Positions 2,389-56,270 of a DNA stretch of 64,000 nucleotides are shown piece after piece. This DNA comes from Octopus vulgaris (taxonomy: Eukaryota). A program made the translations under genes and the position numbers. Under the pieces are notes generated by a model. It searched no databases and had not been told where the DNA came from. It was given only the letters and a program-made list of their open reading frames with translations. Position 1 is the first letter of the stretch. Every line of letters starts with the position of its first letter. The stretch spans positions 1,054,001 through 1,118,000 of the forward strand of contig OX597825.1 in the NCBI GenBank assembly GCA_951406725.2. Direction: 5' to 3'.

Positions 2389-5300
2389 GGACTCTCCTTC
2401 TGGTTTCAGTGTATGGGGCTCCAACAACGTACTCTTTCTTTGTCACTTGCAATGCTTATGTCGAATGTGACATTTAAGTCCTGCCAACAGTTTGCAAAGA
2501 AAGCCACAAATGTTGTAAGTTTGAGGATTACATGTCAGTGTAGGTGGTATATTTGCAGCCTCTTTTCCTCTTTGCTTTGCACCCCGAAGTCTGTTAATGC
2601 TGGTTGCAACAAAGTTTTTAATACCATTTTGACACAGCGATCTCCATTTTGTTCATACCGATGCTGTTCGCTCAAATTTGTTGTGAGCTATCTTCATCTC
2701 TAAGAGGTTACTCTTCAGCTTGTCCTTATACCTGAGCCATGGTCGAACAACATTCCTGTGTCCACTCTCAAGCTGGCTGAGCATGAGGACTTTGGGTATT
2801 CTTTCATCACTGATTCTGTCAACATGGCTGCCCAGCACAATTGTGATTGTATAAGGAAGCTCTCAATTCCACCAATCTTACACTTTGCTAAACAAGTTGG
2901 CATTAGAAACTTTGTCTTTTAGTGAATAACCACAGATAGTCCTCAGACAGTCTTTGAGGAAGATGTCTAGCTGGTTTATGTGTTGTCTATAGGGTATCCA
3001 CGATTCTGAGCCATACAAGAGAGTAGTAAGAATGGCTGTTTTATAGACCTGTTCTTTGGTGTCAAGTTTGATTCTCCTTTCATTCCATAGGTGAGGACAA
3101 CAGAGTTTGCCAATTGCATTGGTTGCCTTTGCAAGACAGTTGATGATTTCGTCATAAAGGGAAATGCTCAAATTCACTTTACTACCAAGACATGTAAAAT
3201 ACTTCACATGATTTAGGCTTTTCCCATCAACCTGTATAGGAGGGTCAGGAAAATTGTGAACCAGTGGCCTCTGCTTGACACCTCGAATTTGTTTAGGAGA
3301 AGGGCAAGGTTGGTGGATTACTTCTGCCTTCTTTATGCTGACGGTCAAACAAAAGGCTTTTCATGCAGCAGAAAACTGCTATAGAAGTTATAATGATAAC
3401 ATTTAACATCTTGTCAGGTATACTCAGCTTTTTCAGAACTTTCCATAGTGCTTGCCAGCTAACAGCGTTGAAGGCCTTAATAAGGTCAACAAATATCAAG
3501 AACAGCTCTTGAGTTTTCTCGCATACCTTCTCCATGACCTGTGGGAGGGAAAAGATCATGTCAATAGTGCCACAAACAGCAAAATCCACACTGTGATTCT
3601 GGGTAGATATCATTTACTACATGTTTGATGATCCTGTCAAGAATGAGTCGAGCAAGAATCTTACCAAAAATAGACAGAAGCCATATTCCATGAGGATTAT
3701 CACAGACACTTCTGTTGCCTTTGTTCTTATACAGATGTTGAAGTGAGGCATCCCTGAAATTCTGTGGTACATGGCCTATGAAGAGGTCATGCAGTTTCTT
3801 CAAAAGCTTCTGTCCACCATGTTTGTAAATTTCAGGAGGGACAGCATCCCTGCCAGGTGCTTTACCAGAAGAGATCTGTTTAATAGAGTTTACCACTTCC
3901 AGACAGGTTGGCTCCGGAGACAATTCCAGTCTATTAGAGTGTGCTGTGGAACAGACATTATGACGTCATCATTGGTGACTGAGGTGGAGTTCAACACGGC
4001 CTCAAAGTGATCTTTCCATCATTTCAAGATGTGAGATTTGTCAGTCAGGAGTGTCTCTCTATTCGATGAAAAAATGAGTAACACCATGCTCTTGAGGACC
4101 AAACACTTTCTTGAGGTCATCATAAAAAGCTTTAGAATCCTTTTTGTTTGCAGTATCTTGGAGTTCACCAAGCCTCCTTCATCTGTCTCAGAGCATGTTG
4201 GACCTGGCCTCTGCATTTCTTGTAGGCATTCTCTTTCCGGGATGAGCTCATATCATTTATCCAAGTTCTGTGAGAGATGTGCATTTTATCTATCAACTGT
4301 TGGACATCTGTGTTGCTATCTTTGAACCAATCTTGATGTTTACGAACAGGAAGTCCAAGAATCTCTACAGATGCAGTGTGCATTGCATCACATAGAGACT
4401 TCCAAGATGTTTCTATGTCATCATTGATATCAAAAGTGTTGACTGCAGTGTCCATCCAACTTGATAGAGAGCTCAGCCTGCTTTTCAACAGTTTCCAAAG
4501 GCAGAACATTAATAGACTTAGGCACTGATGACTTTTGTAGCCTTGTGTGTTTCAGATGGAATGTAGCCTGCTACAGAGAAGAGAACAGTCAGAGAGATAG
4601 CAGGTATTATGAAAGGAACGTGTAAAGTCCCTAGTATCTCATTTCTTATTGATAACATGGTTCTATGAGATGCCAGTCTTTAGATCTAGGATGCATCCAT
4701 GTCATCTTACAAAAAATTTCACTGTTGGAAAAAGGCATTTGTGATGCTTAGACTGAATTCCCTGCAGATGGAGAGCACACGCAGACTGTGGGAGTTCATT
4801 CAACTTACACCATGACAACCAAGTACATCCTCTCCCATGCCTGATAGTCATTTCCAACATGAGTGTTAAAGTCGTCCATAAGGATAAGTTTATCTCTATG
4901 GTAACAACTGGAGATGACATCATGGAGTTGGCTGCAAAATTGGTTGGGGCAGAGCAACTGACAAGCATTGTGATCAAGTTCTAACGTTAGTGCCATGATG
5001 CGATCAGAAATGCCTTTGGGTAGAGAAAGAAGGGATCTAGCCATTTCTGTTTTGATAGCAAAATCAACACCAAAGTGGTCTTCATTTCTTCCACACCAGA
5101 AAATATATATATATCCACTTTTATTTTCTTCTAACTGTGCAAGACGCTTCCAATGTATTTCTTTAGTTCAAGGGCAACCAGTACTGTTTTATGTTCTGCT
5201 GCTGAGTGACTGTCTTGGAGAATGTTCACATTCCAAGAGCCAAGGTTGATATTCTTAGATTTCTTCGAGTTTCAACTGTATTACTGAATAACTAGACAGC

Positions 5301-6232: not shown

Positions 6233-6261
<29 letters not shown>

Positions 6262-6265
<4 letters not shown>

Positions 6266-6419
6266 ATAAAACGGTAAGATAACAAAAGAAAGAAAGAGAC
6301 CTCAATATTATGTAAATAGAGGAAATTTATCTATATATATATATCATAATCTGAAGATAGTGAATCCACAACACATCTTCGGTTATCTGGCTTTTCTGAA
6401 ATAGCCAGATACCGAAGAG

Positions 6420-6422
<3 letters not shown>
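6262..6422. repeat. Truncated copy of the palindromic hammerhead-like repeat at 11826-12180
   Basis: 6262-6330 is the reverse complement of 12105-12177; 6370-6422 is a hairpin CATCTTCGGTTATCTGGCT..AGCCAGATACCGAAGAGATG. Confidence 0.75.
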
Positions 6423-6699: not shown

Positions 6700-6824
6700 T
6701 CATCATCATCATCATCGTTTAACATCCGCTTTCCATGCTAGCATGGGTTGGCCGATTTTGACTGAGGGCTGGCGAACCAGATGGCTGTACCAGGCCCCAA
6801 TCTTGATCTGGCGGAGTTTCTACT
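6700..6824 (-). mobile_element. SINE 3' part with (GAT)n tail (family B)
   Basis: Near-identical in reverse to 37130-37250 (CCAACCCATGCTAGCATGGAAAG..GTTAAACGATGATG). Confidence 0.85.
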
Positions 6825-8045
6825 CAATTAATGTTTCATTTGGAAGCATATGTTATTAGTCTCACAATTCTATAAACTTATTCTTAGATTTACAATGGAA
6901 ATACTCCTTATATAACTCAACTTTCACAAATATTTCTCAATCTCTAAACTGACACTTTTCATACATTTAACTTCTAAGCACCCTTTTTTCATCGGCAAAG
7001 GTTATGAAAAATCTATGATGCCATTTCCAACAAATTTCCCAGAATATTCAATAAAGATTTCTGTTTAAATGAAACAAATGTCTCCTCAATATTCTTTTGT
7101 CCTCACTCATTCCACTTTTAGTTACGTACACTCTTTGTCATGTTTTTCTTTTTCTTTATGCTCCTGTTATTTTGTATTTGTCAATCTTTTAAAAATGCTT
7201 TTAGTCTAATATTTAATCTGAAATAAAACCTCTGAAGAAGATGGAATTTTCCAAATTATTAAAAATCTTAGTTGCTTGAACCATAATTTATGGAGGAGGT
7301 TTGAAGTCTAAAAAGTCGACAAATGCCAGAGCACAAGCTAAACATAGATTTTAACATTTTATTCTCTGTGGTTCAATATGATATAAGAAGATAAAGAAAG
7401 TTTGGAGTCATCTGTGAAAGCAACTTATGCATAATGATTTATAATAAGTAACTTATTCCTTTCTTATTGATCTGAAGTAATATCATGCAAAGAAATTTCT
7501 AGATATGACAAGATAACTGTTCGAAAGTTGGTGTGCAGGATAAATAAATCTGTCCTTTTCCCTACAGGCATCTGATAAAAAGAGCAACTAATGATACATT
7601 TTTCGTGGAAACCTCATAAAATACAGTCAGAGGGGTGAGATATACAAATGTATGAGCTGTTATTAACCCTGCACACTAAAATTATGTAAGTTGGTACATT
7701 TTACTATTATATTGAAATTTGTGAACAATATTTCAATGTTAGCAGGTTTTCAATGAGCCAGTCACTGGCTCAATATATTTCTTATAGTGAATTTGAGAAA
7801 GGAGTATTTGTAACTAAGTATAGAACAAATATCACAAGGGGCATTGTTAGAAAAGCACCTGTTTTCTTGCCAGTTGTTTTTTTTTTCTGTCTTCCTTGTA
7901 ACTTTTGTTGATATACATTGGTGAAAAATATACACACATGTATGTATACATATATTCATTTTTAACTGTGGAAGCTGAAGTTAAAAACAAATTATTTCAC
8001 ATTCTCTTGAACTGTCAAATTCTTATGATGCAGATAACACACACA

Positions 8046-11791: not shown

Positions 11792-11825
<34 letters not shown>

Positions 11826-11829
<4 letters not shown>

Positions 11830-12180
11830 GTAAATGTAATATGCGACAATTATTTGGTAGCCATGATAAAACTCCGAGTTTCGGGTGCCGAGGTGGAAAT
11901 CCATGCCGCCATCTCTTCGGTTATCTGGCCATCGGAAAAATGCTATGAAAAATGATTGTGTTATTGATTCCATTCTTCTCCTTTTTCATAGCATTTTTCC
12001 GATGGCTGGATAACTGAAGAGATGGTGGCGTGGATTTCCACCTTGGCATCCGAAACTTGGAGTGTTATCATGGCTACCAAATAATTGTCACATATTACAT
12101 TTACAGATAAATGCCTCTATTCACATAATATCAAGGTCTCTTTCTTTCTTTTGTTGTCTTACCGTTTTTATCAATATATA
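11826..12180. mobile_element. Palindromic repeat (127-bp arms, ~28-nt loop, 11826-12108, plus 72-bp tail) carrying two opposed hammerhead-like motifs; probable Penelope-like terminal repeat
   Basis: 11826-11952 is the reverse complement of 11982-12108 with scattered mismatches; CTGAAGA...GAAA core at 12014-12055. Confidence 0.75.
12009..12069 (+). ncRNA. Minimal type-I hammerhead ribozyme-like motif (cleavage triplet is GUG, non-canonical)
   Basis: Stem I GATAA/TTATC; CUGAAGA; stem II GATG..CATC enclosing a GTGGA/TCCAC hairpin; extra C; GAAA; stem III ACT/AGT. Confidence 0.55.
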
Positions 12181-12351
12181 TCATCATCATCATCATTATT
12201 TAACGTCTGCTTTCCATGCTAGCATGGGTTGGATGGTTCAACTGGGGTCTGGGAAGCCAGAAGGCTGCACCAGGCCCAGTCTGATCTGGCAGTGTTTCTA
12301 CAGCTGGATGCCCTTCCTAACACCAACCACTCTGTGAGTGTACAACCACTC

Positions 12352-12355
<4 letters not shown>
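12181..12355 (-). mobile_element. SINE family B 3' part
   Basis: (CAT)n TTTAACGTCTGCTTTCCATGCTAGCATGGGTTGG...CTGGATGCCCTTCCTAACACCAACCAC. Confidence 0.85.
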
Positions 12356-13652
<1,297 letters not shown>

Positions 13653-55569: not shown

Positions 55570-56270
55570 ATCATCATCATCATTTAACGTCTGTTGACCA
55601 TGCTGGCATGGGTTGGACAGTGTGACCAGAGCTGGTATGGACTGGACAGTGTGACCAGAGCTGGTATGGATTGGACAGTGTGACCAGAGCTGGTATGGAT
55701 TGGACAGTGTGACCAGAGCTGGTATGGACTGGACAGTGTGACCAGAGCTGGCATGGGTTGGACAGTGTGACCAGAGCTGGCATGGGTTGGACAGTGTGAC
55801 CAGAGCTGGCATGGGTTGGACAGTGTGACCAGAGCTGGTATGGACTGGACAGTGTGACCAGAGCTGGTATGGACTGGACAGTGTGACTAGAGCTGGTATG
55901 GACTGGACAGTGTGACCAGAGCTGGTATGGACTGGACAGTGTGACCAGAGCTGGTATGGACTGGACAGTGTGACCAGAGCTGGTATGGACTGGACAGTGT
56001 GACCAGAGCTGGCATGGGTTGGACAGTGTGACCAGAGCTGGTATGGATTGGACAGTGTGACCAGAGCTGGCATGGGTTGGACAGTGTGACCAGAGCTGGT
56101 ATGGATTGGACAGTGTGACCAGAGCTGGTATGGATTGGACAGTGTGACCAGAGCTGGCAAGCTGTAAGAAGGGGGACTGCACTGTACCCCAGTCTGATTC
56201 TATGACTGGATGCTCTTCCTGATGCCAACTATTCTACACAGTGTGCTGGATGCTTTGATGTGGCACCACA
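55570..56270 (-). mobile_element. SINE family B copy hosting a minisatellite
   Basis: (CAT)n TTTAACGTCTGTTGACCATGCTGGCATGGGTTGGAC before the array; CTGGATGCTCTTCCTGATGCCAAC after it. Confidence 0.8.
55602..56158 (+). repeat. 29-bp minisatellite, 19 copies
   Basis: Unit GCTGG(C/T)ATGG(GT/AC/AT)TGGACAGTGTGACCAGA, exact 29-bp period from 55602 to 56152. Confidence 0.97.

Follow-up and report, generated by a model that had tools for sequence, protein, structure and literature searches.

The Hydra clade of C-terminal EN+ Penelope-like elements (PLEs), which includes Hydra-1_Obim and Penelope-13_HM, was described by Craig et al. (2021; PMC8557442), and the same source leaves the role of the hammerheads carried by PLEs open. 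As set out in the portion of that account available to us, Hydra elements have the motifs RWK, DKT, CxCX5C, CxxC and CxH, a unit shorter than 3 kb, a (TA)n target, a type I hammerhead with a palindromic helix III, inverted 5′-truncated copies and a one-sided tail, all of which recur in the octopus repeat described here; Penelope-13_HM also resembles it in having an inverted copy with a hammerhead on each strand. The octopus repeat belongs to a family separate from Hydra-1_Obim, with different stems and a protein that is alike in part only on comparison by eye. It differs from the Hydra elements of that account in its tail (67 nt as against 30–40), in a bulged C in stem II, and at core position 4, which is U in 26/26 Hydra hammerheads and is fixed as C in two of the octopus lineages.

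The minimal PLE hammerheads of Cervera and de la Pena (2014; PMC4209133) are likewise of type I, with a short palindromic helix III and a dependence on dimers, and lie mostly in truncated PLEs; pairs on opposed strands, 100–700 bp apart, were already reported in Schistosoma. Their usual extra nucleotide is located between positions 9 and 10.1, whereas the octopus motifs have theirs in the 3′ strand of stem II, and the core variant reported in the accessible part of that paper is a U3–A8 pair, not U4C. The latter change is found in a viroid hammerhead (Perreault et al. 2011; PMC3088659), in the relevant section as a rare variant of a tertiary-stabilised ribozyme, in contrast to the thousands of genomic minimal ribozymes considered here; work cited there found that U4C lowers the activity of the viroid hammerhead in vitro while infectivity is kept. 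For insertion, the nearest analogue is PAc, a Poseidon PLE of Anolis (Frangieh et al. 2024; PMC11167929), whose reverse transcriptase (RT) starts in vitro at two sites bounding the tail and extends both strands of an AT-rich target, as would be expected of the octopus element. Hammerhead cleavage is unnecessary for PAc insertion in vitro. PAc belongs to another clade, and the strict pairing of one start site with each arm is not described in the text of that paper as available to us.

The window, the whole 64-kb stretch of Octopus vulgaris DNA that was analysed, comes from a 2.8-Gb genome rich in microsatellites. Alignment of the window sequence delimits an inverted repeat with arms at 11822–11955 and 11979–12112, with 11 mismatches over the 127 positions 11829–11955. 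The hairpin spans 11826–12108, with a predicted folding energy of −220 kcal/mol, and the arm alignment, the folding and the motif letters confirm the earlier note's description of a 283-nt hairpin with two opposed hammerhead motifs (Table 1). We interpret it, with a probability of about 0.9, as a single old insertion of a Hydra-clade PLE, in which a TA repeat contains two short 3′-end copies placed back to back, and the hammerheads, predicted to be inactive, have since decayed separately.

Table 1. Parts of the hairpin locus, its two hammerhead motifs and the separate related pieces in the window.
Feature	Position	Strand	Remarks
(TA)n target, left flank	11797..11827	.	Repeat scan; TA-type flanks at nearly all of 30 aligned copies
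Left arm: inverted, 5′-truncated PLE 3′ end without tail	11828..11955	-	Begins at putative proximal start site
Minimal type I hammerhead	11865..11925	-	C3 at 11920, private U4C (11919), GUU triplet (H17 at 11870)
Junction, 23 nt, between both truncated 5′ ends	11956..11978	.	Sequence different in every copy
Right arm: 5′-truncated PLE 3′ end	11979..12108	+	
Minimal type I hammerhead	12009..12069	+	C3 at 12014, canonical core, extra C 12051, private G17 (12064)
PLE tail, 67 nt, on one arm only	12109..12175	+	Ends at putative distal start site
TA target remnant, right flank	12176..12180	.	Then (ATC)n and another repeat
Separate insertion: tail-only piece, young subfamily	6258..6335	-	78/78 nt identical to L093
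Separate fragment: short fold-back junction of young C4 subfamily	6363..6421	.	Carries CCGAAGA at 6412-6418

Adjoining the locus is a 1.3-kb (TA)n array (12356–13643), and between them lies the repeat that starts with (ATC)n, present in two copies (12181–12355 and 6709–6825), which we presume to resemble a SINE end. Elsewhere in the window are broken LINE-like frames with endonuclease- and RT-like stretches (2878–5167, minus strand) and a 29-bp minisatellite (55595–56157; 19.4 copies, 95% matches). No host gene was found within the 64 kb.

The plus-strand motif reads CUGAAGA, has an extra C ahead of GAAA and ends in a GUG triplet; the minus-strand motif reads CCGAAGA and has the extra C and a GUU triplet. 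Stem III is in both a 9-nt near-palindrome of which only three pairs are closable as a monomer. That stems I–III are all present, as had been claimed, holds in general, except for this short monomeric stem III and for a private change at 11885 that breaks a stem II pair of the minus copy. Neither window copy thus combines an intact core with an NUH triplet, the plus copy having G17 and the minus copy C4 and the broken pair. In the part of PMC3884650 available to us, G17 strongly impairs minimal hammerheads and is tolerated in tertiary-stabilised ones. Both window motifs are predicted to be inactive. An Rfam scan of the window gave no hammerhead family match at E ≤ 1 and only sub-threshold miRNA matches, those at the locus reflecting only the hairpin.

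That the motifs are hammerheads, as the earlier note proposed, is borne out at the level of the family. A descriptor blind to position 4, run on 78 metagenome loci of related elements (38–48% protein identity), found the hammerhead layout in 47, compared with 0.6/78 after shuffling; since the window repeat in addition has at least 4,259 candidates in the genome, its motifs are not due to chance. Stems pair across copies: among 44 in-genome copies picked because their core is intact, pairing holds in 90.9% of stem cells (slid controls, 32–58%). Three pairs of helix I have both partners changed, mainly along a single branch. Of 38 distinct rows, 37 pair G10.1 with the final pyrimidine ahead of GAAA (19 G–U, 18 G–C). 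In a sister family, termed S here, the stem runs unbroken through the site of the extra C and has an additional purine on its 5′ side, which makes a bulge next to the G10.1–Y11.1 pair the best reading of the extra C, whose partner would have been lost. Helix III is nearly palindromic, its self-duplex being predicted at −9.7 kcal/mol in subfamily A and −7.4 kcal/mol in subfamily B2, and it is through this helix that the hammerhead of the parent element would act as a dimer. Among the 45 distinct motifs of the outside relatives, 44 have U4 and one has C4, a U3–A8 pair occurs in three, and the triplet is GUU (U17) in five; as U17 also ends 10/26 Hydra hammerhead rows in the accessible part of PMC8557442, GUU is common in the clade. 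The single C4 case is a natural hammerhead of near-canonical layout; it lies in a metagenome contig, upstream of a related frame (L348:2658–2705).

Whether the defects of the window motifs are inherited or private was read from arms extracted from loci L001–L164 (181, minus four gapped ones). Subfamily A, to which the window belongs, comprises 116 arms with a mean distance of 6.8% from their own majority, of which the 84 unselected on the core were used for defect counts. Position 4 is U in 83 of these and C in one, the left arm of the window; 75 have a GUU triplet, and GUG occurs once, in the right arm of the window. Both U4C and GUG at the window are therefore private decay. The extra base is C in 74 unselected arms, T in 7 and A in 3, and the extra C is thus inherited. 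The converse idea, that CUGAAGA in subfamily A arose by CpG decay of an ancestral CCGAAGA, was dropped after the comparisons of copies and arms. Each window arm has six changes relative to the subfamily majority, three and five of them at CpG sites. One CpG change is common to both arms and may reflect some arm-to-arm conversion or a variant source copy.

These counts also bear on the suggestion that the locus is a selected two-state device, in which opposed ribozymes with complementary defects compete with the hairpin for folding. Most of the core and stems I–III are indeed kept in both motifs, but each defect is seen once in 84 arms, only here and amid ordinary CpG decay, other hairpin copies carry two canonical cores, and decay in the two arms is about that of other copies. 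Opposed motifs are, moreover, mutually antisense, so that no helix III dimer can form within one transcript. A balanced competition between the two folds is not upheld by the predicted energies either: forcing one hammerhead to fold would cost the transcript 96 (plus) or 78 (minus) kcal/mol, and the hairpin wins by these amounts. The two-state device is already largely refuted, and we regard it as having next to no chance of being correct. A read-through transcript of the stub would instead form a near-perfect 130-bp duplex burying both motifs.

Such a duplex could have been co-opted, the dead stub serving as a source of double-stranded RNA for A-to-I editing or as an siRNA or miRNA precursor, and the sub-threshold miRNA matches point the same way in so far as they register the hairpin. 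This copy, however, shows no sign of constraint, the window has no host gene, and there is no A>G excess in 53 arms of two classes (A>G 11 and 13, T>C 9 and 15), although genomic copies would not record RNA editing. Among contigs from sequencing runs aligned to the window, none spans the unique centre of the hairpin. We consider co-option improbable.

An intact core is present in 58 of 82 subfamily A arms. Substitution in the core (2.8%) is lower than in the rest of the motif (5.5%, p = 0.0008) and close to that of the 3′ flank (3.9%, p = 0.19), suggesting at most weak constraint on the core among subfamily A copies. A core no better kept among copies than its flanks was part of what the earlier note took as refuting its reading. 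Among dead copies this is what the flank comparison gives; between lineages, core and stems are kept. Dead copies are the wrong level for this comparison.

Of the candidates from the DNA search with the window repeat, 40 were scored and 30 aligned; they have the same arms, TA flanks and one-sided tail, and the centre is unique to each. Long inverted arms, TA flanks and thousands of copies would also be expected if the hairpin were a fold-back DNA transposon or MITE that targets TA and has terminal inverted repeats of 130 nt. The fixed length, fixed centre and symmetric ends of such an element are not found: the centre differs in every copy, arms range from tens of bases to more than 2 kb, and the ends are asymmetric. 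Single arms, furthermore, continue into an RT–endonuclease frame, a link that refutes the MITE reading and leaves it with a negligible probability.

This continuation was followed with a 28-mer from upstream, which has 148 exact matches in the genome, 30 of them compared. Copies picked in this way run upstream through a long GT-rich 3′ untranslated region (UTR) into a decayed frame whose last 165 codons form a GIY-YIG domain (Pfam PF01541, E = 0.014, below cut-off) with at least 20,009 candidates in the genome. Locus L093 contains a 717-codon frame with this arm, the tail and (TA)n downstream of it. A model of its protein, built from 120 sequences (pLDDT 93.8), matches RTs, telomerase among them (best match 6zdq, E = 6.8e-9), and it is from this predicted fold and from its motifs that we identify the frame as an RT; Pfam gave nothing useful for the 717-residue protein and ten relatives, and a PDB sequence search with the protein gave no match. 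The L093 protein has RWK at residue 46 and DKT, for DKG, at residue 123, followed by a CxCX5C linker, CxxC and CxH (residues 566, 669 and 700), with the CxxC and CxH flanking conserved E and N in a C-terminal EN. Each of these Hydra-defining residues is kept in 112–120 of the 120 aligned rows. The RT motif is YKDD in all 55 genome loci showing it (residue 355 in L093), as against YRDD in 119 of the 120 aligned rows; an endonuclease tree gave no placement of the root.

The unit is 2,591 nt long, with a (TA)n target and a 3′ hammerhead, as in Hydra elements. Features typical of PLEs are a single RT and GIY-YIG frame, inverted 5′-truncated copies, the one-sided tail and partial tandems, and 146 exact tail-to-5′ junctions give head-to-tail arrays with a period of ~2.59 kb. 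Tandem junctions of subfamily A were sought and none was found. By its sequence motifs and layout, the parent element is assigned to the Hydra clade; Neptune, considered as its clade, was dropped, since the Hydra-defining motifs are present instead. A non-LTR retrozyme was likewise rejected, the locus being an inverted pair without a tandem array and the parent coding rather than made of non-coding tandem units. Near full-length copies in L093, L096 and L103 start within ~20 nt of each other, 60–80 nt ahead of the first Met, possibly at a transcription start or splice boundary. Long open frames, up to 717 codons, and tandems of up to about five 2.59-kb units are found in subfamily B2 (L093:4734–4800, L165–L168, L184–L188), in which the 3′ UTR is ~500 nt shorter than in B1 and A. 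The window locus itself is a decayed inverted Hydra PLE stub, a known kind of debris and one of thousands.

Its layout follows a rule. Among inverted pairs with tails outward, 59 of 66 consist of one tailed arm and one that ends ~67 nt earlier, without a tail; without the 29 pairs picked for resembling the window, the count is 31 of 37. The rule holds for arms of 130 nt to 2.5 kb, either arm may be the longer, and the 3′ end of each arm abuts TA. Short arms are usual, with 55 of 90 tail-selected arms ending within 175 nt. Eleven subfamily A arms (L255–L344) end 181–183 nt from the tail end, in a T run just 5′ of helix I; this cluster is in part a run-length alignment effect and possibly a truncation or joining hot spot.

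From these genomic ends and the Poseidon-clade analogue we infer how the hairpin would have formed. The GIY-YIG endonuclease of the element would cut both strands of (TA)n and the RT would prime a cDNA from each of the cut ends, one starting where the tail ends, the other 67 nt further in; both cDNAs would stop after ~130–200 nt, just beyond the hammerhead, and their unfinished ends would be joined through the 23-nt filler. As both arms copy the same stretch, two RNAs, a multimeric RNA or a re-used template would be needed. The palindrome is a by-product of PLE insertion, and its centre differs in every copy.

The main rival to this two-priming origin is that a single arm was inserted first and the second arose later by fold-back repair, or by template switching of one cDNA. 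It would explain the rare variants common to both arms at several loci (for example, L021, L009 and L019) and the junctions, which are often in T/A runs with microhomology. It gives no reason for the copy to stop exactly at the proximal site, where tail-less arms end with partners as short as 130 nt and as long as 2.5 kb, nor for either arm to be able to be the longer. We judge the fold-back origin unlikely, albeit less so than co-option, and retain two primings as the preferred reading.

Genomic ends were also compared with the predicted cleavage site. In young B2 tandem copies, 4 of 94 5′ ends fall at 104–110 nt (predicted cut, 110), and 77 of 93 usable upstream partial copies run past the cut, several of these rows being from the same multimer. 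In subfamily A, 3 of 52 arms begin at 111–113 (cut, 112) and 38 run past 120. No significant pile-up of 5′ ends at the predicted cut was found in B2 or A (p ~0.1 each against local density). These ends would neither show nor exclude cleavage, as re-ligated or circular RNA would look alike; the read-through agrees with uncut RNA as the putative main template.

The suggestion that the family may use a variant core fails for the subfamily of the window, with its 83/84 U4, and holds for its relatives. The CCGAAGA previously pointed out near 6410 is present, in a fragment with motifs cut off within stem II and hence no whole hammerhead; this fragment and the tail-only piece at 6258–6335 belong to subfamily B. 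Both branches of B are young (B1, 14 arms, 1.4% diverged; B2, 25 arms, 1.6%), and 19 of 20 of their unselected arms have C4, position 11.1 being U. Arms of an intermediate group are mixed at position 4 (17 U, 5 C). Exact 17-mers number 3,985 with C and 2,516 with T genome-wide (controls, 0 and 1), although exact matching favours young copies and these counts are not copy numbers. In the older family S (16% diverged; L443–L472, L481), 57 pattern matches divide at position 4 into 39 with C, 16 with T and 2 with A, the T probably being CpG decay; the C4 core of S is combined with a GUA triplet and an unbroken stem II, and helix I shows compensatory changes. The B-type end also occurs in sequencing-run contigs of four organisms, in which position 4 is without a listed change.

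When position 4 is masked, a tree of 26 3′ ends places B within the U4 copies (supports 89, 95 and 100; deeper nodes weak), from which it follows that C4 was gained in B and, with C4 in family S, that position 4 changed at least twice. C4 may be a slow but selected setting, which the kept core and helices of S and B would favour, or plain relaxation. Tentatively, we propose that position 4 switched between U and C at least twice with the rest of the core and the helices kept, that the youngest form combines C4 with a G–U closing pair and the bulge, and that C4 would be a selected slow setting, in which residual cutting leaves uncut multimeric RNA to be copied into tandems that rebuild the upstream repeat; we think this possible rather than probable. 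No C4 PLE hammerhead and no description of this family was found in the literature and supplements covered, and a prior description is possible.

What interest the locus retains lies in its parent family, where this U4/C4 switch recurs. The majority class of these motifs would be overlooked in the octopus genome by standard CUGANGA descriptors. The rule of one tailed and one tail-less arm would be the trace left in the genome by paired priming at two RT start sites, and it limits the ways in which PLE inversions can form. With a young C4 lineage that has long open frames and cDNAs mostly reaching past the cut site, a direct test of U4 against C4 is possible on natural sequences. If the slow-setting reading is true, the genome would hold a natural dated series, U4 and then C4, in which to ask what PLE hammerheads are for.
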